From a virus (Duplodnaviria; Caudoviricetes): DNA of 34,727 nucleotides. A model generated the notes under the pieces. That model did not search any database. It was not told where the DNA came from and saw only the letters and a list, made by a program, of their open reading frames with translations. The stretch's first letter is position 1. Each line of letters opens with the position of its first letter. The position numbers were made by a program, and so were the translations under genes. The stretch is from positions 1-34,727 of the IMG/VR virus record IMGVR_UViG_3300020161_000999; one strand, given 5' to 3'. Shown in pieces: positions 6,352 to 31,727 of the stretch.

Positions 6352-9065
6352 TAGGCACCTAGGATTTCCACGGGGACTGCGCCCAACTTGTCGAGCTTGG
6401 CTTCCAGTTTCCTCAGTTGGTCAAGTTGCTTTCGGTATTCCTCAATCGCCGGGTCTTCACGTCCCGTGGCGAGCCGCACCAACTCTGCCGCACCTTCCTG
6501 CGTGCGGATGTCGTTGATCTGGAGCGGCTGCTGTGACACCCGCTGTAAGGCCGCGATGCGCTCCCCCTCAACGCTGGCCCGCTCATCGATGATCTGTAGT
6601 TCGAGATTGCGGATCTCTTCCAGCCGCTTGATGCGGTCGTTGAAGAGTTGCTGCTGCTTCTGGATCGCAGCGTCGAAGCCCTTCGGATCAATCACGCCGT
6701 CTTCGAGTTGGGCCTTCGCCTTCTCCAGCCCACGCTGGAACTCAAGGCCAGCCTGCACGCCCGCCTGTCCGAACTCGCCCACCTTGGCGATGACGGCATC
6801 TAGTTCGTCCTGTGCGCCCTTGATCGCCTGCTGGATGTCGTTGGCGTTGAAGCCGAAGTCGAGCGTGTCTTGTGCGGCGGCCTGGGCCTGGTCGAGGATC
6901 TGAAGCCGCCGCAGTGCTGCCTTCTCGGCATCCACGTCGCCCTTGGCGCGGGCCTGCACGATGGCGGTCTCGGCTTCGTCAATCTGCCGCGTGATCGCCA
7001 GCAGGTTCGCGGCGGCCTCGTTCTCTTGGCCGAAGCCGTTCTGGCGAACGAAGGCGTCGGCGCGCTGGCGGTCGGCTTCAGCAATCCGCTCGGCCGCACG
7101 CACTCGGTCCTCGGCGGCCTTGTTGGCGGCATCTGCTGCCTGCCGCTGAGCGTCGGCCTCGCGGCCCAGTGCTTCGATATTCTTCTCGAAGTCCTGCCGC
7201 GAGGCAGCGACCGCACGGGCCAACTGTTCCTCGGAAAGCCCGGCCCCCTCGGCGGCTGCGGCCACATCCTCCAGAGACTTCACGAATGCGAGAAACGCCT
7301 TCGTGCCGTCGTTACCAAGGGCCGCCGCCTGGGCCTGTGCTTTCTCAAGGTCGCCAGAAAGCCGGATCGTGCCGTCGCCAGCAAGCCCTAGCGAGTTGAC
7401 CAGTTCGGCAATCGCCGCGTTTGCCCGGCCTTCTTGGAGAGACTTGGCCACCTGCTCGCGGCTCTCAATGATCTCGCGGTCGAACTTGAGCCGGTCGGCC
7501 GACTTCTGAAAGCCCGCCCACGTCTTGTCGTTGGAAACGTCGTCGAGTTGCCGGATGAACCTGTTCAGCCCGCCAATCGCCTCGGCTGTGTTGTCGGCCA
7601 CGATCTTGCCGAACCCGGCGAAGTTGGCCGTGAGTTGCCGCTTGAGTCCCTGCGATGCAACGCCAAGCCGGTCCAGCGAATCACCGAAGGCGTCGATCTC
7701 GGCACGCTGCTGGTCGGTCAGTGCCCCGCCGATCCGCTCCAAGTCAGCGGCAGCGGCACCCAACTGCCGGAACACAGGCAGCAACTCGGCACCGCTCTTG
7801 CCGAACAAGGCAACCGCCGTGGCCGCACGCTTCGCCGGGTCGGCAATTCTGGCAATGGCATCGGCCGACTGCGTGAAGAGCGTCTCGGGGTCGGCGTTTC
7901 GCACGTCCTCGGTGCTCAGCCCCAGCGTCTTGAACGCAGCGGCAGCGTTCTTGCCGCCGTCGCGGGCGTCATCTACCGAGCGGAGGAACTTGGTGAAACT
8001 GCCGCCCAGCGATTCCACGCTGGTGCCGGTCTGGTTGGCGGCCGTCTCCAGCACTTGGATGAATCCGAACGACACGCCGAGCCGTTCGGCCAACTGGCCC
8101 AGCCGCTCGACCTCCGCTTCGAGTTGCACCAGGCCACGCCCCACCGCCACGGCCCCGGCCCCAAACGCAGCCAGCCCGCCGAGTGCCAGCGTCGTCGGAT
8201 TCACGAGGCCCGCAATGGCCACGCCGAACTGACCAATCCCGCCGCCGTTGGAGAAGATGCGGTTGAGCCCCTCGGCGGCACTGGAGATACCAGACAGCCG
8301 ACCGGCCACGTTGCCAATCGGGCCGGGCAGGATGGCCAGCGTGCCAGCCAGTTCGTTGAAAGCGAGGTTGCCCTGCTTCCCGGCCTTCTCCACGGCCGAG
8401 TCGTAGCCCTTGGCGGCCGACTCAGCGCGGACAAAGGCTTGCGTGGCTTGCGCGACAAGCGTGTTAAACTGCTGTTGGTTCAGGCTGCCAGCGTTGAGGT
8501 GCGTAACCAGTTCAAGCACCTGGTTGTCGTACCGCTCAAGCGGCGTGCGGGCCTGCTCCTGCAACTGGGCGGCGCGGGCCGACAGCGTAGCCCGCTCCTG
8601 CTCAGAGCGAGCGGCCTGCTCGTTGATGCCGATGGATGCAACCGAAGCCCGGTTGTACGTCTCAAGACTGATTGCCCCGAGATCGTACAACTGTGCGAGC
8701 CGCTGTGTGGTGGCGGCCTGCCGCTCCTGCGCCGTGGCGAACTGCTCCGCAAGCCGCTGCCCCTCGGCAAAGGCATCGGCGGTGCCCCTCGCCGCTGCCT
8801 GAATCTTCGCAAACTCGGCGGCGAACTCTTGGGCCGACACCTGCCCCGTCTTCAGGGCCGACGTAAGGAAGGCAATGTCGGTGGCCACCTGCCGCTGGGC
8901 TGCCGACGCGCCGCTGGTGCTGCCGACGAACTTCTCAAACAGCGACGCCGACGCGCTGGCCTGCTCGCCCAACTTCTGCAACGCCCGATCTACCGGCGTC
9001 AGGCTCTTCTGGAGACCACTGGCATCTGCCGTGATCTTCATTGCGAGGCCGAGGACGGTAGCCAT
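6351..9065 (-). CDS. Tail tape measure protein (904 aa)
   Basis: Long Ala/Gln-rich helical protein after the tail chaperones. Confidence 0.92.
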   Translation of the reverse strand: MATVLGLAMKITADASGLQKSLTPVDRALQKLGEQASASASLFEKFVGSTSGASAAQRQVATDIAFLTSALKTGQVSAQEFAAEFAKIQAAARGTADAFAEGQRLAEQFATAQERQAATTQRLAQLYDLGAISLETYNRASVASIGINEQAARSEQERATLSARAAQLQEQARTPLERYDNQVLELVTHLNAGSLNQQQFNTLVAQATQAFVRAESAAKGYDSAVEKAGKQGNLAFNELAGTLAILPGPIGNVAGRLSGISSAAEGLNRIFSNGGGIGQFGVAIAGLVNPTTLALGGLAAFGAGAVAVGRGLVQLEAEVERLGQLAERLGVSFGFIQVLETAANQTGTSVESLGGSFTKFLRSVDDARDGGKNAAAAFKTLGLSTEDVRNADPETLFTQSADAIARIADPAKRAATAVALFGKSGAELLPVFRQLGAAAADLERIGGALTDQQRAEIDAFGDSLDRLGVASQGLKRQLTANFAGFGKIVADNTAEAIGGLNRFIRQLDDVSNDKTWAGFQKSADRLKFDREIIESREQVAKSLQEGRANAAIAELVNSLGLAGDGTIRLSGDLEKAQAQAAALGNDGTKAFLAFVKSLEDVAAAAEGAGLSEEQLARAVAASRQDFEKNIEALGREADAQRQAADAANKAAEDRVRAAERIAEADRQRADAFVRQNGFGQENEAAANLLAITRQIDEAETAIVQARAKGDVDAEKAALRRLQILDQAQAAAQDTLDFGFNANDIQQAIKGAQDELDAVIAKVGEFGQAGVQAGLEFQRGLEKAKAQLEDGVIDPKGFDAAIQKQQQLFNDRIKRLEEIRNLELQIIDERASVEGERIAALQRVSQQPLQINDIRTQEGAAELVRLATGREDPAIEEYRKQLDQLRKLEAKLDKLGAVPVEILGA

Positions 9066-9738
9066 TACGCGGTGCCTTTCTTCGCCATCTTGGCTTTCGC
9101 CTGTTCGATAGCGTCGAGAATCTGGGCTTCGTGCTGGGGCGGGCGCTCAATCGGCACGAAGTCTTCGGTCTTCGGGGTGCGGCCCTTCGGACAGTATGGC
9201 GCAAGGGCGGCACTGGCTAGCAGTCCCGTCTGCCTCCACGGATCGGGCAGCGGGTCGAAGAACCTGTGCATCGCCACCCACTCCGAAAGCTCGCGGGAAT
9301 CCATGCGCTCCCCGAGCTCGCGGACGGTCATGCCGAGGTGGGCCGCTAGGCGGAACATGAATCGGCGCGTCGGCCTAGCGTTCAGCCTTTTCCCAGTTCT
9401 TGCACGTCCTCTTCCGTGAGGGCGTTGTGCTCCATCGCCTTCTGCCACAGCAGGCTCATCACCTTGGCAGACTTGTTGCCCAGGGCGGCGATGTCCTCGG
9501 CCGTCGTGAAGAGCAACTCGCCCTTGTCGTTGCAGAGCACCTTCTGGAGAAACTTCGTGCGGAAGTTGTCCACGCTCTCCACGCCTGCCTTACGGTTGCG
9601 GACCCACTCGTTTTCGTAGGCGTCACGCTCGGCCACGCTCATCACACGGATGAACACGCTGCCGCTCCACTGCTTGACGGGCACTTCGAGCAGGCCGAGA
9701 TCGTCGGCGGCAAGAATCTGGTCTTTGGTCAGGGGCAT
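9065..9738 (-). CDS. Tail assembly chaperone G-T fusion via -1 frameshift
   Basis: Slippery G-GGA-AAA at 9388-9394 leads into the RLNARPTRRFMFRLAAHLG frame. Confidence 0.8.
9382..9738 (-). CDS. Tail assembly chaperone (gpG-like)
   Basis: Position between tail-tube-like genes and tape measure; ends at the slippery site. Confidence 0.85.
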   Translation of the reverse strand: MPLTKDQILAADDLGLLEVPVKQWSGSVFIRVMSVAERDAYENEWVRNRKAGVESVDNFRTKFLQKVLCNDKGELLFTTAEDIAALGNKSAKVMSLLWQKAMEHNALTEEDVQELGKG

Positions 9739-12849: not shown

Positions 12850-13046
12850 TTCTTGCGTCTCCGCTTGGGCGTGGCGTCGGCGGTTTCCACGGTGTGCTCG
12901 ACGGCCGCCGTCTCAATCAGTTCCTGCTGCCGGTCTTCCACCGCGAACTTCTTGGCGATCAGTTCGACCGCCAGCCCGCCGGGGATCTCCACCACCTGGC
13001 CGGTGCGGTAGTTTCGGAACGGTCGCAGCATCCTCAGTTTCGTCAT
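12846..13046 (-). CDS. Small hypothetical protein (66 aa), head module
   Basis: ATGA/GTGA overlaps on both sides. Confidence 0.7.
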   Translation of the reverse strand: MTKLRMLRPFRNYRTGQVVEIPGGLAVELIAKKFAVEDRQQELIETAAVEHTVETADATPKRRRKK

Positions 13047-13777
13047 TCAGGCACCCTCCATGCAGACTCAGGCCGCTTCATCGTGTTGGCGAACTCGGTG
13101 GAATACTGAAACACGGGCTTGCCGAGATCCTGCCCCGGCCACGTCACCATGTATTCGCCATGCCCGAGGATCACGCGGGGCGTGACGTAGCACCGATTGC
13201 CAGCGGCGCGGAACTGCCGCCAGAACCAGATGTCGTCATCGGTGCGGCCTTCGCCCCATTCGCCGTCTCCGTTGGGCACGCCCTTGAACCAGGGCTTCAG
13301 CGTCCGCTTCAGGGCCGCCGTGGAGATCACCGTGCAGCCGAAGTGCATCGTGTCCACCTCCTGCACGGGCTCGGCAAACCACGACCGGGGCAGCGTGGTC
13401 TTGCCGTCCTCGGGCGGGTTGTCGAGCGTGCCCTTGAGCGTGAGCATCGGGCGGCCGTCCTCACGCTTCGTCTGGAAGCCGGTGAGGGCGTCACACTGAA
13501 ACGTCATCGCCATCGCAAAGAGTTGCTCCACGTCTTCGCGGGTGAAGAAGGTGTCGTAGTCGATGGTCAGCAGGTACTCGCACTTGTCCACGAACTGCTC
13601 GCAGACCCTTTGCAAGCATTGTCCCCAAAATGCGCCGGAAACTTTTGTAGGCCGTATGCCCAGCGGCATCAGCGCCTGTGCCCAGGTGTAGAAGTTGTCC
13701 ATGAACCCGAGGCGGGGCACGCTCATGACGGCCTCCACCCGAATGTCGCACTCAGTGCCACCGACGCGGACGATCAT
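13043..13777 (-). CDS. GT-A fold glycosyltransferase-like protein
   Basis: LLTIDYD (DxD), HFGCTVI, DDIWF and LGH motifs. Confidence 0.75.
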   Translation of the reverse strand: MIVRVGGTECDIRVEAVMSVPRLGFMDNFYTWAQALMPLGIRPTKVSGAFWGQCLQRVCEQFVDKCEYLLTIDYDTFFTREDVEQLFAMAMTFQCDALTGFQTKREDGRPMLTLKGTLDNPPEDGKTTLPRSWFAEPVQEVDTMHFGCTVISTAALKRTLKPWFKGVPNGDGEWGEGRTDDDIWFWRQFRAAGNRCYVTPRVILGHGEYMVTWPGQDLGKPVFQYSTEFANTMKRPESAWRVPE

Positions 13778-16056: not shown

Positions 16057-17338
16057 CGGTCGGGTTCTCCTGTTCGGCCTGGTCTTCTGTGTCGTCTTCC
16101 GGTGAATCCTCCACCTCCGCGACGGGCGCGGGCATCGGCTCGGGGGCGGGCGGCTCTTGGCCCACCTTGTCCAGCGTGGTCATGTTCAACTGCACGAAGT
16201 GCTTGTCACCTTCTGGCCCGATGGGGTTGAGGTTCTCCAGTTCGCGGATCTCGTTCACGGTCATCCAGCCGTTCTGGAGAGCGGAAACGTAGTAGGCCGA
16301 CCGGCTCGCGTGGTCGCCCCGCAGCAGGCCGCTCACCGAGTGCTCCGCGAAGAAAACCTCATCGTCTACAACGAGGTCTCTGCTTATGGCCGCCTCCCAC
16401 CGCTTCAGGTGCGGCAGCAGGCAATGCTGGACGAACTCGGTTCCCTGCACCTCAATGTTCGAGTAGGTGCTGCGGTCCAGTTGCTGAACCATGTGAGGCG
16501 GCACGCGGAAAATCCGGCAGCACTCGTACACAGCGAAAGACCGGCTCTCAAGCATCTGGGCAGCCTCGTTGCTGCTGCTCAGTTCATGGGCCTTTACGCC
16601 CGCAGGCAATACTGCCGTTCTGTGAGCCCTATCGCTGCCGCGATGCAACCTTTCCCAAGACTCCCGAAGCCGCTCCGCAGCCTCTACTGGAATTGGGCTC
16701 TCCGACTCCAGCACAACACCGGGGCGTGCATTGTTCCCAAAGAACGTCGCCGCGTGCGTTTCAAGAGCCTGCGAAAGGCCGATGACATTGGAAAAAAGTC
16801 GGTACGTCGGGATCGGCTTGATGCCGTCCTCGGTCGTGAACCGCAGCGCGAATACCTGGTCCTGCGAGTAGATCGTCTCGCGGCCGTTCGGCTCACGATA
16901 CCGATACCGCAACGTGCCATCAGAGAGCCGCTCGGCCTCCATGCGGCTGGAGTGCAGTGGCCACAGTTCAGAGACGGCCCCGCGAGCACCTGGGCGAATC
17001 TCGGCGTAGCTCGCCCCATAGTGGAGATACATGCCGGTCATCCAATCCCGAAACTCCTGCGCCGTCTGCCACGGGTTGGGCTGGGCGTGCAGGAGCCGGT
17101 AGACCGGGTGCGTGGTGGCCTTCGTCTTGCCGCCATTGGCCAGCCGCTCGTAGACGTGCAGCGGCAGCGACGATACCGCATCCGATATGACGCGGATGCA
17201 GGCCGTGTAGGCAGAGCACGCCATTGAGTTGTCGGCAGTCACGCGGATGCCCGAGGGCGTCCGGCTGCTTGAAACCTCGGGCCAGTCGATGCCACGGAGG
17301 TCGAACATCTTGTAATCGGCAGCGGCGTTTTCGCTCAT
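16046..17338 (-). CDS. HK97-family portal protein
   Basis: FRVPPH, YSNIE and GWMTVNEIRELENL motifs. Confidence 0.95.
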   Translation of the reverse strand: MSENAAADYKMFDLRGIDWPEVSSSRTPSGIRVTADNSMACSAYTACIRVISDAVSSLPLHVYERLANGGKTKATTHPVYRLLHAQPNPWQTAQEFRDWMTGMYLHYGASYAEIRPGARGAVSELWPLHSSRMEAERLSDGTLRYRYREPNGRETIYSQDQVFALRFTTEDGIKPIPTYRLFSNVIGLSQALETHAATFFGNNARPGVVLESESPIPVEAAERLRESWERLHRGSDRAHRTAVLPAGVKAHELSSSNEAAQMLESRSFAVYECCRIFRVPPHMVQQLDRSTYSNIEVQGTEFVQHCLLPHLKRWEAAISRDLVVDDEVFFAEHSVSGLLRGDHASRSAYYVSALQNGWMTVNEIRELENLNPIGPEGDKHFVQLNMTTLDKVGQEPPAPEPMPAPVAEVEDSPEDDTEDQAEQENPTDGN

Positions 17339-18999
17339 AAGGTCAGGATGTCCCAGGATTGTTCGGGGGCCGGTGCGGTCGCCGTCGCGTGGATGCCGAG
17401 GGCCATGACCAGGGCCACGATGCCGTCGATGCGTTCGGTTGACTTCGCCTTACTGCATTTCATGTTGCCCTGGTGGTCGGTCTGCAAGGCCACGTTCGCC
17501 GCCATCCAACTCAGCACCGGGTGATTTGCGTGCCGTATCCGTTCCGACATTGCGAGCATCTCAAGCTGACGGCACGGGCTCGTCATGCTGGCATACCCTT
17601 GCCCGTACCCTACGACGTTTAGGCCGTCGCCTTGCAGTTGGGTGGCTAGTTGCGTGGCGTTCCAGCGGTCGATGCCCACCTGCCGGATGTTGTATTTCTT
17701 GGCCAGTTCGTTGATGTCCCGGCGGATCACGTCGTAGTCGGTACAGTTTCCATCCGTGGCCCGCACATAGCCTTCCCGAATCCAGCCGAGGTAGTCCACC
17801 TTATCCCGCAGCGTCCGCTCGGCGGCGTTCTGCTCGGGCACCCAAAAGAACGGCATCACGTCGAAGGTGCCATCGGCCGCCTGGCTCACCATCACGAAGG
17901 CCGACAAGTCGGTCGTGCTCGCCAAGTCGAGGCCCGCATACCACTCCCGCTTTTCCAGTTCGCCGTCGAGGGGCTTGCCGCATTTGGCCCATGTGTCAGG
18001 CGAGAGCCAGCGCGTGTCTTGCGTGGTCCAGACGTTGAGCCGGTAACGCAGGAAGGCGTTGAGCTTGCTGGGGCTTTGCTCGGCCTCGCGGGCGTCGGCC
18101 GCGAATGACTCCAGCGTGATCGTCTCGCCCAGGCTCGGGTTCGCCTGCTTCCAGACCCGATCTTCCTTCCACGTCCCATCGGCTCCGCACTCGGGTGGCG
18201 CGGCGTAGATGCACCCGAAGAAGGCCGGGTCCGTGGTGGGGTCGGCCGTGCATCGCTCGGCGTAGGCGTGCTGCTCCCAGCAGATGCTCTTGCGGTCGTA
18301 GCCCGCCGTCGTGATTGAGAGAAGGAGTGGTTGTTTTCGAGCCGCTCCACCGTACCTGAGTGCGTCGCGTGTTTTGCCCCGGCCTTCGCCCCCGGCTTCT
18401 CAGCCGAGGGCGAAAGCCCAGAGGCGGCGGTCCCTTTGCGCATGAAGTTCATCGAACAGAAGGGCGTGAATATTCAGCCCCTCCGCACGGAACGCATCGG
18501 CCGAGAGCACTCGATAGAACGAGTTGCTCGCCTTGTGGATGATCGTCTTCCGGCTGTCGATCACGTCGAAATACTTCGACAACGCAGGCGAGGCCCGCAC
18601 CATCGACGCGGCCTCCCGGTAGATGATGCCTGCCTGCTCACGGTCGCTGGCCGCCCCGTAGCACTCGGCACCCTTTTCCCCGTCGAACCCGGTCAGGTAG
18701 AGCGCGAGGCCCGCGAGTGTCGTGCTCTTGCCTTGCTTCTTCGGCAGTTCGATGTAGCCGATGCGGTGCTGCCGCGTGCCGTCTGGGTTCAGCCGCCCGA
18801 AGAGCTCGCGGAGCACATGGTGCTGCCAGGGCAGGAGCTTGAACGGCTGGCCCGCGATCTGGCCCTTGCTGTGCCGCAGGATGTTCTCGAAGAACCAGAC
18901 AACGCGCTCGTACTTCTTCTGCCCCTCGGGCGTCAGATCATGCGCCGTGGATCTTAAAGAACTCTTCAACTTCGTCGGTTGGCTTTTCTTCTTTGCCAC
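17335..18999 (-). CDS. terL: Terminase large subunit interrupted by a 51-nt insert containing an in-frame TGA (18400-18402)
   Basis: One frame carries Walker A PKKQGKST, Walker B LLFDE, ITTAG, ANPSLG, GLDLA and IDG; the only internal stop is in the insert. Confidence 0.92.
18367..18417 (-). other. 51-nt hairpin insert in terL (candidate recoding element)
   Basis: 17-bp stem (18381-18418), GAGA loop, two G-U pairs; removal restores RRLW-DALRYG. Confidence 0.85.
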
Positions 19000-19411
19000 C
19001 TAGCCGTGTCCTTGAGGTAGGCGTCAGCCCAAACTCGCCCATTAGTGAGGTTTGCAGGCTCACTAATCCGCGATATAGCGGGCCAGCCGGGTTCGGTTTC
19101 ACGCCACCAAGATCGGTTCGCATGACCGGACCAGTGGCCCGCAGTTCGAGCAAGCACGACTGAGCCGCAGAATACACCTCGCACAAAGTCGCCAGAGCTT
19201 CGCCATCGGCCTGCGTGAGCGTGCCCAGGTCGGTGAGGATCGGCACGAACTCCTGCCACTTGGCAACGGCCACCGGATCGACCATCAGCCGCTCGGGCAT
19301 CGGCGGCGCGCCAGCCGGGGCCGGGAGGTCGGGGCGGATCTTCCGCTTGCCTGGATTTCCTGCCAGCCGCTTCACCGAAGCGGGCATCGGCCGACGACCT
19401 TTTGCTGCCAT
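18938..19411 (-). CDS. terS: Terminase small subunit, P27 family
   Basis: GRRP...GNPGKR...NPA...EFGLTPTSR motif. Confidence 0.92.
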   Translation of the reverse strand: MAAKGRRPMPASVKRLAGNPGKRKIRPDLPAPAGAPPMPERLMVDPVAVAKWQEFVPILTDLGTLTQADGEALATLCEVYSAAQSCLLELRATGPVMRTDLGGVKPNPAGPLYRGLVSLQTSLMGEFGLTPTSRTRLGGKEEKPTDEVEEFFKIHGA

Positions 19412-19590
19412 TCTTTCTAAACCGTAAGGAAGTTTTTTGGTCGCGCTTCACTCAGGACGCAACAGGATCAACGCTCAAGTGCCGTTTTAAGTGCGATTTT
19501 CGGAAGTCGGCTCCGGCGGCTGATCGGGGCACCCAAAAAACGCGGTGCATTCTGCGGCCGCGCGTTTTCCGCTTCTACGGACGGTATTGC

Positions 19591-19935
19591 TCAATCGGGG
19601 GTGTAGCGATTTGCTACACCCCTCCCCGCTCGCGTTTCCATCGCTGTCTTCCTGCTATGGCACGACTGACATCGTGCCTGCCCATTCCCCACGTCGTACC
19701 GTTCGCCGCCCTGGCTGATGGGCACGACGTGGTCTGCGTGCATCTCACGCCCATGTGCCACGCGCCCACAGTCCACGCATTGCCAGTTGCACTTCGTCAG
19801 CACGGCCTGCCGCCATGCCTTGTGTGCCTTGTCGCAGTAGCCTCGTGCTGCCGCGTTGGGCCTGGCCGTGTCGTCGCGCCGTGGGCCTCGCGTGCGTAAG
19901 CGTGGCGGCCTGTGGCTTGGCATCCGTGATGGCAT
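19591..19935 (-). CDS. HNH endonuclease (HK97 gp74-like packaging accessory)
   Basis: CVDC, ADHVVP and N.Q..CQSCHSRKT motifs; upstream of terS. Confidence 0.9.
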   Translation of the reverse strand: MPSRMPSHRPPRLRTRGPRRDDTARPNAAARGYCDKAHKAWRQAVLTKCNWQCVDCGRVAHGREMHADHVVPISQGGERYDVGNGQARCQSCHSRKTAMETRAGRGVANRYTPD

Positions 19936-19999
19936 GCGTCCAGCCTACCGCGTGCGTCCACGTCCCTTGCATGGCCGTCTACTCAATGTGTAGCGCACT

Positions 20000-20296
20000 T
20001 CAGACCGGCGGCTCGGGCAGCGGCATCCAGTGGGTCGGCTTCTGCGTTGAGTTGCATTGCCACCGGACGCCGTACTCGTCGTTGTCGCAGAATGCGATGC
20101 AGCGTTCCCCATCCGGCAGGCAGGCCAGCACTCCGACCGGGTTGCCCATGTAATCCGGCTCCGGCAGCCTGTCGCCCACCGGAATCCAGGGCTGCGGCAC
20201 GATTGTCATGCTGAACCCTTCTGGCAGCGTGGTCATGGCGGCGACCGGATTGCGATCCCTGGCCGCCCATTCGGCTGCAATTCTATCAACACTCAT
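20000..20296 (-). CDS. DUF551 domain protein
   Basis: WIPVGDRLPE...THWMPLPEPP. Confidence 0.85.
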   Translation of the reverse strand: MSVDRIAAEWAARDRNPVAAMTTLPEGFSMTIVPQPWIPVGDRLPEPDYMGNPVGVLACLPDGERCIAFCDNDEYGVRWQCNSTQKPTHWMPLPEPPV

Positions 20297-21062: not shown

Positions 21063-21386
21063 TCAGGCGGGCGCAACCGGCCAAGGGATCGCCCCTTCGC
21101 CGCTGTAGACGCTGGGCAGATCGCGGAGCGATTGCCGATACGCGGCCCACGCAGTTTGATCCACCGGAGCGTCGGCTACCTGCGTCCAGTCGCTCGCGGT
21201 CAGCCTCGCGTTACGTTCCTTGCGAACGTCAGCCATGTCGTGCCGCTCTGGCTCGCGCACCCAGCCTGCGGGCAACTCCGCTTCGGGGATCGCGGTGCAG
21301 CCGTCTGGCGGCGTCCAACCTTCGGGCAGATCGTCGCGGACGAACGTGACCACCTGGCCGAGAGCGTTGAGGATTGCGAGTGCCAT
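21063..21386 (-). CDS. Tail fibre assembly chaperone (Phage_tail_APC-like)
   Basis: RKERNARL.ASDWTQ..DAP...W..YRQ.LRDLP...WP motif. Confidence 0.85.
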   Translation of the reverse strand: MALAILNALGQVVTFVRDDLPEGWTPPDGCTAIPEAELPAGWVREPERHDMADVRKERNARLTASDWTQVADAPVDQTAWAAYRQSLRDLPSVYSGEGAIPWPVAPA

Positions 21387-21390
21387 AGCG

Positions 21391-22938
21391 TTAGAACCAC
21401 ACAGTTATGCGAACGTGCCCATCGCCGCCGTTACCGCCACTGCCGGAATTGTTGCCGTTGGCAGACGCACCGCCGCCGCATCCACCGTAACCGTAGGAGA
21501 TGCCGTTAGTGCCGTTGCCGCCAGAAGATGTAGTTGAGGCTGCGCCGCCAGCGCCGTTTGATCCGAACTGCGCCGAGTCGGCGAGGATTTGCCCACCGGC
21601 CAACTGCGAGCCACCGAGATATGCGACGTTCGCGCTACTAATGCCACCGCCCGCGCCGCCTCCTTGCGCGACGTTGCCGCTCGGGAACGCACGCAAGGCG
21701 TTGCCTGTTATTGAAGAGTTTGATCCCGAAATTCCAAGAAATGTACGATTTTCAGACGATCCGCCAAACGATCCGCCGCCGCCAGCGGCGGCAGTGCCGC
21801 CAGACCCGCCGCCGCCACCAAACGCGATAAATGGGTTCGCCCCAGAAAAGAAAAGGCTTGTCTGACCACCGCCCGTGCCGTTACTTCCGTTAGCGTCATC
21901 GGCAGTCGCAGCGGCACCGCCAGCACCACCAGCGGCGATAACGACGCTTATGCTTGTTGTGATGAGCGACGGATTTACGGCTGCCCAGACAGTACCACCG
22001 CTAGCGCCGCCACCACCGCCGAATCGGGCAGTTCCAGCAGCACCGCGTCGGCCACTGCCGCCACCGCCCCCAGCGCCGATAGTGAGAAACTCAACTAGCC
22101 TGGCTCCAGCGGGAACGGACCATATGTAAGACCCGCCGCTGCCGGTAGCCGACGCCGGTCGGGTTGTGCGAGTAAACTCAAAAACTTGGCACAGCGAAAC
22201 CGGATCAGTACCGCCGGGATTGTGCGTCGTGGCGTGTGTGCCGAGCCTCGCCGCCGCGACCGTGCCGGTGGTGATGTCGGCCCCGCTGTGAACGTGGGAG
22301 AGCGGCGTCCTCGCGTCGGTGAATCGGGCGTCGTTCCCTGCCGCAACGGTGGTCGAAGTCTGGCCGACCGGCAGGCGGGCGAAGTCCAGCGTGTCCGATG
22401 TGATCGCAGATGCGCTATGTGTGTGAGATGCGGCCGCCGCGTCCGTGATCCCGTAGCCTGCGAGCGTCGTCGGCTTGCCGGTGAGGCCGCTAAAGGTGGT
22501 CGTCCCAGCCGGGCCGGTCGCACCAGTGGCACCAGTTGCCCCTGCCGGGCCTTGCGCGCCGGTATCGCCTGTATCGCCCTTTGGTCCCTGTGGGCCTGTT
22601 GCTCCGGTGGCACCTGCCGAGCCGGTCGCGCCCTGCGGCCCCTGTGGCCCTTGCGGGCCAGTTGGCCCCGTGTCGCCTGTGTCGCCCTTCGCTCCCTGTG
22701 CTCCGGTCGCTCCAGTGGCGCCGGTGGCCCCGGCTGTCCCAGATGGCCCTTGCGGCCCCTGCGATCCCGTTGCACCTGCCGGGCCGGTGGCGCCGGTCGC
22801 TCCCGCTGGGCCTTGCGGTCCTTGTGGCCCCTGCGCGCCGCTCGGGCCGAACCCAGCCGCCACGGAAACGTCGATCTGCGTCTCACCGACGCTGGCCGTG
22901 ATCTGCTGCCCGCCGCTGACGTTCGCGTTGATCGGCAT
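21391..22938 (-). CDS. Collagen-like fibre protein with glycine-rich C-terminal domain
   Basis: 39 Gly-X-Y triplets, HTH/HVH fibre motifs, GAGGGGG repeats. Confidence 0.85.
22498..22848 (-). repeat. Collagen Gly-X-Y coding repeat
   Basis: Uninterrupted GPQ/GAT/GDT triplets. Confidence 0.9.
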
Positions 22939-23252
22939 CAGAGCACCTCCACGAATCCGGTGAGGGCCGTGCGGGTCGCCTGGTTCTCCACCCACTTCAT
23001 CTGCCAGCCGTAGGTGCCACGGGCCAGGGCGGCCGTCTGCGTGTCGTTCAGGGAGACGTTCACCTGCCCGGCCGTGGCCGAGGCGAACGAGACGGTGAGC
23101 GGCTGCACCTCGTCGCCCGTCACGAGGGATGTGACGCCAGCGGTCACGGTGTAGCCGGTCATGCCGATAGAGAAGTCGATGAGCGTGGAGAAGTCATCGC
23201 CCCGCTTGAACGAGAGATTGAGCGCGCCGGGTGTTTGATCGTAGGAGGCCAT
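22938..23252 (-). CDS. Putative virion protein (BppU-N-like fibre anchor)
   Basis: RGDDF...GQVNVSL...QTAAL..GTY.W pattern; coupled to the fibre gene. Confidence 0.55.
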
Positions 23253-30882: not shown

Positions 30883-31727
30883 GCGATTCCTTTCGCTGCT
30901 GTTGTCACCTTCGCGGCAAGCGCACGACGTGTACGCTCGAACGCCAGGGCGTCGTCACCTGTAAATGCCTTCGGGGGCGGCGAGCCGTCGCCGAAGTCGC
31001 GGCCACGCTGCGGCTCGCCCTTCGGGTTGTCGAACGACCCGCCCAGCACCTTGTGAGCCCAGCCGGGCTTCACGAACTGGATAAGCGTCATCGGGGTCTT
31101 GAAGTACCGGCACTCGCCGATACGCCCGATGGCCTCCATCGCCACCTCAAACCAGCCGGGTTCGGCCAGCCGGTCTTCCCATCCGTCCGGCGGCGTTGGC
31201 GGGGTCCACCTGCGACCCTTGCCAGCGTTCCATGCCGCTCGGAGTTTCTCCCAAGCCTCGTGCGGAGGAAGATGAAGAGATTCTTCTAATCTCTCATCTC
31301 CTCTGCGACGCTCGGGCGTCGGATCGTCCGACGCTGGGGCGTCGGAGCCACCTTGCCTGCGTTTGCGGCCGGGATTCCGCTCTTCGTGATCCCGGCTGCG
31401 GTCGGCTTGCTGGGCTCTCGACTTGGCCGCCTGGCTAAACCGGCGATCCCATCCGGGGACAGCAACGGTAGCGACCGTCTCGTCGATCTCCAGCCAGCCC
31501 ACGCTTGCCACTGCGTTCCAAAAGTCCTCTGTAGCCCCGCAGGTTCGCACCAGGCGGGGGATCGTCATGCGGGCCGTGCCATCGGCACAGTGCATAGATG
31601 CCCAGCCCCAGAGGTTCAGGAGGTTGAACACCACGTCCTGCACAGGCAGGCCCGTCGTGTCGATGAGCTCCTGCACCTCGGGCTTCTGAGGTAGGGCCAA
31701 GTCGTAGGCGATCCATTCACCGGCCAT
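30879..31727 (-). CDS. Phage replication initiator-like protein
   Basis: MAGEWI...KPEV...LWGW...VGWL N-terminus typical of phage replication proteins; position. Confidence 0.65.
   Translation of the reverse strand: MAGEWIAYDLALPQKPEVQELIDTTGLPVQDVVFNLLNLWGWASMHCADGTARMTIPRLVRTCGATEDFWNAVASVGWLEIDETVATVAVPGWDRRFSQAAKSRAQQADRSRDHEERNPGRKRRQGGSDAPASDDPTPERRRGDERLEESLHLPPHEAWEKLRAAWNAGKGRRWTPPTPPDGWEDRLAEPGWFEVAMEAIGRIGECRYFKTPMTLIQFVKPGWAHKVLGGSFDNPKGEPQRGRDFGDGSPPPKAFTGDDALAFERTRRALAAKVTTAAKGIA

Follow-up and report, generated by a model that had tools for sequence, protein, structure and literature searches.

How the large terminase subunit can be made from an interrupted gene is the question raised by the 34,727-nt stretch of lake phage DNA analysed here (the window), in which terL, the sole gene for the DNA-packaging motor, contains a 51-nt hairpin carrying an in-frame UGA. 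The most probable answer, to which a probability of about two in three was assigned, is that ribosomes skip the hairpin by programmed translational bypassing, giving full-length terminase.

The interrupted terL gene and its two halves

The terL reading frame lies on the minus strand, extends from a GTG at 18999 to a stop at 17335 and comprises 554 codons, with one TGA at 18400–18402. The following features were recognized within it.

18418–18999, minus strand: terL 5' part, 194 codons, encoding the ATPase up to Walker B and ending in a Trp codon (PHROG 9 profile positions 183–337; PF03354)
18418–18420, minus strand: TGG (Trp) at the base of the stem, predicted codon of take-off, placed by comparison with six sister sites
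18381–18418, minus strand: 17-bp hairpin with a GAGA loop (18398–18401) and two G-U pairs; a weaker lower stem extends to 18421/18378
18400–18402, minus strand: UGA, insert codon 6, non-conserved
18367–18417, minus strand: 51-nt insert (coding gap), family site A, separating the Trp and Asp codons; insert-free alleles join across it (X5 skips 51 nt)
18370–18378, minus strand: GG (possible mini Shine-Dalgarno, also a stem partner) and A/C-rich spacer, from column counts; putative function
18367–18369, minus strand: last triplet CGC, predicted landing position, sharing only the middle base with TGG
17335–18366, minus strand: terL 3' part of 343 codons, starting at the Asp resume codon and encoding the coupling motif and nuclease domain (PHROG 9 profile positions 339–667; PF20441)

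Subtraction of the 17 insert codons leaves 537 codons, and full-length homologues are mostly 533–537 aa, consistent with the 537-aa TerL that an earlier reading of the sequence alone had obtained by deleting 51 nt. The sequence-only reading had placed the element at 18367–18418; the insert is real and on the minus strand, but it ends at 18417, and the stem is closed by the Trp codon, whose final base is 18418. In a profile search against PHROG 9 the two halves abut, one ending at profile position 337 and the other starting at 339, and the best match among solved structures was chain 6z6d_A, a terminase large subunit that we take to be HK97 TerL. The record, which is 88% complete, contains one terL.

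The presence of the insert was checked in assembled contigs from at least three studies. Contigs of run X1, which may be the source of the window, and of run X2 are identical to it, a contig from a separate study (X3) spans it with 5 differences elsewhere, and a 31,991-nt contig from a third study (X7) spans it with 23 differences over 601 nt, none of those listed being inside the insert. An assembly error was rejected on the basis of these contigs.

The stem pairs positions 18418–18402 with 18397–18381, and the insert fold has an MFE of -49.1 kcal/mol (z -3.8; none of 200 shuffles was equally good), in agreement with the 17-bp stem, GAGA loop and two G-U pairs first described from the letters alone. 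In an Rfam search of the insert no family came close to its gathering threshold, the best E being 0.058, and a scan of 17200–20200 found no promoter or terminator. Further cassette copies in the window were found neither by pattern nor by a covariance model with filters off.

Purifying selection acts on both terL halves. Median dN/dS downstream of the gap was 0.143 in 35 carriers versus 0.126 in 53 uninterrupted genes, and upstream of it 0.084 versus 0.055, the pairs being non-independent and the set being 104 distinct genes out of 193 full-length loci (213 in total). With the insert omitted, the reading frame is uninterrupted from one end motif to the other in 193/213 terL loci. Sixteen carriers are exceptions; the six translated in full contain no other break, though one has an intein-like insertion and one runs off the end of the locus, and the other ten, eight of which are short loci, lay outside the full translation.

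The findings support an intact essential gene rather than a dead one, and the proposal of a recoding element in a live terL, which is conserved, structured and followed by a half under ordinary constraint, has stood. It is highly improbable that the carriers are defective genomes complemented by co-infecting phages or surviving as prophages; an integrase is encoded in the window, but the downstream dN/dS equals that of uninterrupted genes, most loci are open once the insert is omitted, and the stem covaries (see below).

A family of hairpin cassettes at seven coding sites

The site A insert is present in 16 of the 80 best viral loci (nine of 51 nt, seven of 50 nt) and missing from 63; the remaining locus, which was not scored by the motif, has its insert at site C. 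Viral and metagenome contigs were then scanned by pattern, and matches lying in neither terL nor the site F gene were dropped as mostly terminator-like or chance (e.g. 14/62 without terL); the scans yielded 26 distinct site A variants. Fifteen of these, including the window copy, are 51 nt long and stay in frame, and 11 break the frame (seven of 50 nt, three of 52 nt and one of 53 nt). In three of the 26 CGA replaces UGA, leaving no stop inside the insert, and some variants stay open for 31–177 codons until a stop.

Altogether, 44 distinct cassettes of 46–53 nt were found at seven sites: 26 at A, two at B, four at C, three at D, six at E and one at G, all in terL, and two at F, in a second gene. 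The cassettes are a family of hairpins at seven coding sites of related freshwater phages, which the sequence-only reading had not recognized. The sister sites are as follows.

Site B: terL, after Arg of 'ADR'; 46 nt
Site C: terL, after Leu in Walker B; 50 nt
Site D: terL, after Leu of 'EGL'; 50 nt
Site E: terL, after Arg of 'RYR'; 47 nt
Site G: terL Walker A, between matched CTG codons, at about 1150–1240 of locus L372, minus strand; 49 nt
Site F: second gene, behind the capsid gene; 50 nt (TGG/TGG) and 51 nt (TGG/TGC)

The host gene of site F, exemplified by G007:C1:16346-16405 (L350, L375) and by L357, L365, L369 and L370, is a homologue of window positions 13043–13777 (no Pfam match, phrog_1574), where the window copy is uninterrupted. 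One locus (L086) has two terL cassettes of 50 nt each, at sites D and A, 19 codons apart, and one genome (G007) has one cassette in terL and one in the site F gene. A covariance model applied to 35 records recovered the terL cassette in 19/19 known carriers and 0/16 non-carriers, plus site F. Applied to four incomplete Planctomycetota genomes as a possible host reservoir, with only 150 candidates scored in each, the model found one weak and different palindrome (E 0.001).

Pairing is conserved across the family, with 97.5% of 560 cells paired and five pairs changed two-sidedly at sites A and B (none of 500 shuffles was as high), and with 11 such pairs over sites A–E, figures that are inflated by the relatedness of the sequences. 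Non-Watson-Crick positions over the 44 cassettes comprised 112 G-U, one A-C and four others; the 112 G-U versus one A-C point to a structure on the mRNA strand, in line with the selection on RNA that had been suggested from two G-U pairs.

All seven sites begin at a codon boundary. The first base of the cassette is always G, directly after a codon that ends in G, and this codon-final G is paired in the stem; the last base of the predicted take-off codon was paired in 28/28 cassettes and the first two bases partly so. Among site A carriers the take-off TGG is invariant while its stem partners vary. The codon after take-off is GCT, GCC, GTC, GTT or GGT at sites A–E and GCT or GGT at F and G, so that a sense codon starting with G follows in 44/44 cassettes and a stop in 0/44. 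In the window it is GCT, which is also used elsewhere in the same terL.

In cassettes of the six sister sites, the final triplet repeats the codon before the insert exactly in 13/18 cases and in its first two bases in 18/18, so that five have a mismatch, confined to the third base. At all five exact-repeat sites (C–G) the repeat ends at a codon boundary, for which the chance under random phase is ~1 in 243. The site A cassettes end in AGA in 12 variants, CGC in 11, TGA in two and CGA in one, but in TGG in 0/26; only the middle G is constant, and this final triplet is an Arg codon in 24/26. The TGG/TGC cassette at site F shows that decay of a Trp match has precedent within the family. In L059, L172 and site B, stops in the resume frame lie where the gap ends or close to that point, which favours an exact junction (see below), and two site A variants have TGA immediately 5' of the resume codon. 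Upstream of this codon, G is found at -12 in 24/26 and at -11 in 21/26 site A variants, followed by an A/C-rich stretch; these G's also pair in the lower stem and are missing at sites B and E.

The site A label changed 24 and 21 times on trees of the distal parts of terL and three times on a tree of the 40 codons around the junction (104 rows, FastTree only). Seven carrier/non-carrier pairs are 93–98% identical far from the site and 67–75% identical within 15 codons of it, with the differences concentrated from about codon -17 to +15. This pattern indicates that a short recoded tract of ~30 codons moves laterally between terL genes together with the insert, as in homing, and spread would occur by recombination of a ~140-nt cassette. 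The tract and the neighbouring genes lie at the following positions in the window.

18322–18468, minus strand: approximate recoded tract, about codons -17 to +15, mapped in relatives and projected onto the window
18938–19411, minus strand: terS, by profile match
19591–19935, minus strand: gene for a small HNH protein, on the upstream side of terS, whether or not the insert is carried

An HNH gene is located near terS in 13/13 near-complete records, with or without the insert, and its distribution relative to the insert on the tree required seven changes versus 8.5 in shuffles, i.e. no clustering. A search covering homologues of the window's own HNH did not find an insert-linked homing endonuclease.

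Carrier-like flanks (86–96% over 16 codons) without a site A insert occur in L038, L244 and the site B loci, each of which has a cassette elsewhere, and are perhaps traces of earlier tract exchange. Compared with L003, which has the same cassette subtype, the window terL has a dN of 0.011 before the gap and 0.093 after it, so the two halves have different histories. A more distant terL (L137, ~50% identity) combines a site A cassette with an in-frame insertion of ~110 residues in Walker A, at about 800–1140, presumably resembling a mini-intein.

The protein made and the route across the gap

Over 31 contexts, alternative codons in the flanks comprised 19 synonymous and two non-synonymous cases, versus seven and 18 in the insert (Fisher p 2e-5, a value inflated by relatedness, the contexts being non-independent). 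Conservation of the flanks was partly built in, as two scans demanded flank codons, and a hairpin-only scan found the same flanks in 43/43 site A loci. As the flank codons vary almost only synonymously and the insert codons do not, the protein most likely joins exactly W|D. In 120 homologous proteins W and D are never separated by an insertion. Counting back a fixed distance from the coupling motif gives LW, LF or LY just ahead of D in 118/120, and the other two have LW plus one extra residue further downstream.

These data bear on UGA readthrough, one of the possibilities raised by the sequence-only reading, which would give a TerL with 17 extra residues. The window copy and 14 other variants are in frame, as readthrough would need, but the frame-breaking variants and the three without a stop mean that it cannot be the shared mechanism. 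The insert codons are also without coding constraint, no homologue has extra residues at W-D, and table 11 leaves the genes for portal, capsid and tape measure intact, making readthrough extremely unlikely. Programmed readthrough or selenocysteine insertion at a conserved in-frame UGA was rejected, the UGA and the frame varying among carriers, and an alternative genetic code was rejected as the large genes are whole under table 11. No tRNA genes were found in the window.

Alternatively, the halves of TerL might be made as separate chains by termination, re-initiation at an unusual start and assembly. The stop is located in the top of the hairpin in most variants, and there are G-rich stretches upstream of the resume codon. 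However, as had been noted before, the resume frame has no ATG, GTG or TTG until 17925, and the residues D-A-L-R-Y right after the gap are under coding constraint. Each of the seven break points, one of which is inside Walker A, would need a viable split, and the variants that stay open for many codons before a stop also fit poorly. Separate subunits, judged implausible from the first, are thus highly unlikely.

Removal of the cassette from the mRNA, as a mini-intron of ~50 nt whose flanking ends are ligated either by an enzyme of host or phage or through self-catalysis of the RNA, is unlikely but would account for several observations. Any length from 46 to 53 nt would work, selection would act on RNA structure, the exact W|D junction would result, and neither a stop nor a codon match would be needed, which fits site A. 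Against this, the codon-boundary ends at all five exact-repeat sites are left unexplained, and the 3' junctions have no nucleotide in common across sites. Only a stem is conserved, without a catalytic core or an Rfam family near its gathering score, and RNA ligase was found in 0/52 ORFs scanned. The 3' junction also lies well past the stem, in contrast to staggered cuts across one helix. Group I introns have U before the 5' site and a terminal G, and group II introns have GUGYG...AY; both were rejected for a single 51-nt hairpin with no Rfam match near threshold and junction bases that vary among sites. Excision nevertheless retains some weight, as site A keeps only the middle base of the take-off codon and there is no slow A-site codon. 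The cassettes would then be a new class of ~50-nt single-hairpin mobile introns, removed from bacterial mRNA by an as yet undescribed mechanism, in which the codon repeat is an insertion scar that has decayed at site A, which is similarly doubtful.

A related possibility is that the hairpin is precisely deleted from part of the replicating genomes, by slippage or an HUH-type enzyme, with cured copies supplying TerL. A palindrome between short direct repeats is a classic slippage substrate, G-T pairs could form in single-stranded DNA, and the window includes RecT-like and exonuclease genes. However, no repeat remains at site A, and cured genomes would be expected to take over. No 51-nt joint was found in X1–X4, in contigs that drop rare variants, and the two insert-free run contigs differ at many other places. 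Among 69 site A non-carriers, seven are within 86–96% of a carrier's 16-codon flank, but none is identical and all seven have a cassette at another site. Deletion from DNA is therefore very unlikely.

Translational bypassing is preferred because the codon phase and the repeats at the sister sites are needed by a ribosomal hop, and not by excision from RNA or DNA. By analogy with these sites, take-off would be from the codon before the hairpin and landing on the last triplet of the insert. The ribosome would slow with the Trp codon in the P site, and A-site decoding would give way to formation of the G+C-rich hairpin, with which the Trp codon itself can pair, and to release of the peptidyl-tRNA. 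The ribosome would then slide past the hairpin and resume at the Asp codon, the larger, more stable stem possibly replacing a stop in promoting sliding. Ribosomes that fail to skip would stop at UGA or run out of frame, and ending them is likely the only function of the UGA. Little TerL is needed, so a low yield may suffice.

At site A the triplet has probably drifted from an ancestral TGG to CGC, AGA, CGA or TGA, so landing there would be set mainly by the distance from the stem plus one central G-C pair. The mismatch of the take-off codon with the landing one, TGG versus CGC in the window and exact in 0/26 variants, is evidence against bypassing, as is the lack of the slow A-site codon of known systems in all 44 cassettes. 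The lost match fits a decaying target duplication as well as relaxed landing. With seven different upstream peptides, there is also no room for a shared nascent-peptide signal. Within the bypass reading, it is about as likely as not that a portable hairpin by itself causes bacterial ribosomes to leave the message with no stop codon present and to land by distance, with hardly any codon match. A 2004 study is reported to have found that minimal pairing can suffice for landing. Considerable latitude in P-site re-pairing is noted by Manning and Atkins (bioRxiv 10.1101/2022.08.31.505936) and imperfect matches among byps in a 2016 review (PMC5009743), but a match of one base in three remains extreme. 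For T4, sliding driven by EF-G is described as relying on an mRNA stem-loop that mimics a tRNA in the A site (PMC6551183).

For each of the 26 variants, every hop linking two codons that a single tRNA can read was enumerated. The hop from the GGC before UGA to one of three in-frame GGC codons downstream, which had been suggested and which are indeed present, fits 18/26 and was rejected, as it would add eight residues where 0/120 homologues have an insertion. A GGC hop to the Gly codon after DALRY (24/26) and an Asp-to-Asp hop (26/26) were also rejected, as both skip coding-constrained codons. The last triplet, with Arg in 24/26, is better suited to an Arg take-off, but an Arg-to-Arg hop would lose LW and fits the protein worse than the exact W|D junction. 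Bypassing with the exact W|D junction has about an even chance of being correct, whereas a Gly-to-Gly hop is improbable and an Arg-to-Arg hop slightly more so.

Known bypassing systems and the phage context

The parallel with T4 gene 60 drawn in the sequence-only reading was upheld. In gene 60 and its homologues, as here, a non-coding gap of ~50 nt interrupts an essential phage gene with both halves conserved, the take-off codon lies in the 5' arm of a stem with a UUCG or GNRA loop, the end triplet is matched or wobble-matched (as at the six sister sites), the 3' part is A-rich, and lateral spread has replaced flanking coding sequence. However, the T4-type cassettes, described for topoisomerase genes of myoviruses by Manning and Atkins (bioRxiv 10.1101/2022.08.31.505936), occupy one position of one gene rather than seven sites in two genes. 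Their take-off codon is also followed immediately by a stop or a rare codon, which is lacking here, and they have a nascent-peptide signal and a linked homing endonuclease (MobA), whereas no linked endonuclease was found for the terL family. The T4-type stem-loop has 28 bases, in contrast to a G+C-rich stem of 17–20 bp, and one tRNA can read both its take-off codon and its landing codon, whereas site A has no codon match. The T4 type further has a mini Shine-Dalgarno 5–7 nt before landing and an AU-rich spacer, to which the GG and A/C-rich stretch of site A may or may not correspond.

The byps of Magnusiomyces mitochondria (Lang et al. 2014) are reported as mobile hairpin inserts of 27–55 nt at many coding sites (PMC5009743, PMC13461519, PMC7026636), and the terL family is similar in its 46–53-nt size and in its occurrence at seven sites in two genes scattered on the tree. 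Byps have an unused A-site codon and relaxed mitochondrial ribosomes, whereas the terL cassettes have common A-site codons and bacterial ribosomes and, unlike byps, move with a recoded flank. In the Streptomyces phage phiHau3 and in prophages, Antonov et al. 2023 (PMC10732093) describe UUA-linked bypass in the large terminase, having shown the junction peptide in E. coli with a UAA variant. This is the same target gene class, with a non-coding block at a conserved junction, but the blocks are 7–10 nt with a rare UUA trigger and a proposed regulatory role, and there is no long mobile hairpin. The terL cassettes thus work like gene 60 and byps yet fail defining features of both.

Few natural cases of programmed bypassing are known, namely gene 60 with its homologues, the Magnusiomyces mitochondria and a candidate in a Streptomyces terminase (bioRxiv 10.1101/2022.08.31.505936, bioRxiv 2024.12.09.627546, PMC6551183), and a literature search, with most subscription papers outside its reach, found no description of such terL hairpin cassettes. 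If correct, bypassing here would represent a byp-like mobile family read by bacterial ribosomes, for which a portable 50-nt hairpin is enough and an A-site stop, a fixed peptide context and, at site A, a matched landing codon are dispensable. The 44 natural variants at seven sites would be a ready mutant series for the rules of take-off and landing, and a metagenomic-phage terL split by a stop or frameshift could be functional, not a pseudogene or sequencing error.

By gene content, the window represents a temperate lambda/HK97-like siphovirus. Three of six genome matches were to Pirellulales or Pirellulaceae and one to Phycisphaerales, the best long match having 80% identity, and a Planctomycetota host is likely; short matches included a 1,086-nt contig at 97% labelled Clavibacter and another labelled Sphingobacteriia.

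The tail fiber and fiber assembly genes (21063–23252, minus strand) are upstream of the terminase module, not after the tape measure gene. A GGGAAAA at 9388–9394 (minus strand) closely precedes the stop codon of the gene for the tail assembly chaperone (9382–9738), the end of which overlaps the next frame (9065–9448), and is likely the ordinary -1 frameshift of tailed phages. An imperfect inverted repeat with 21-nt arms at 31303–31347, within the replication initiator gene, is possibly part of the origin.
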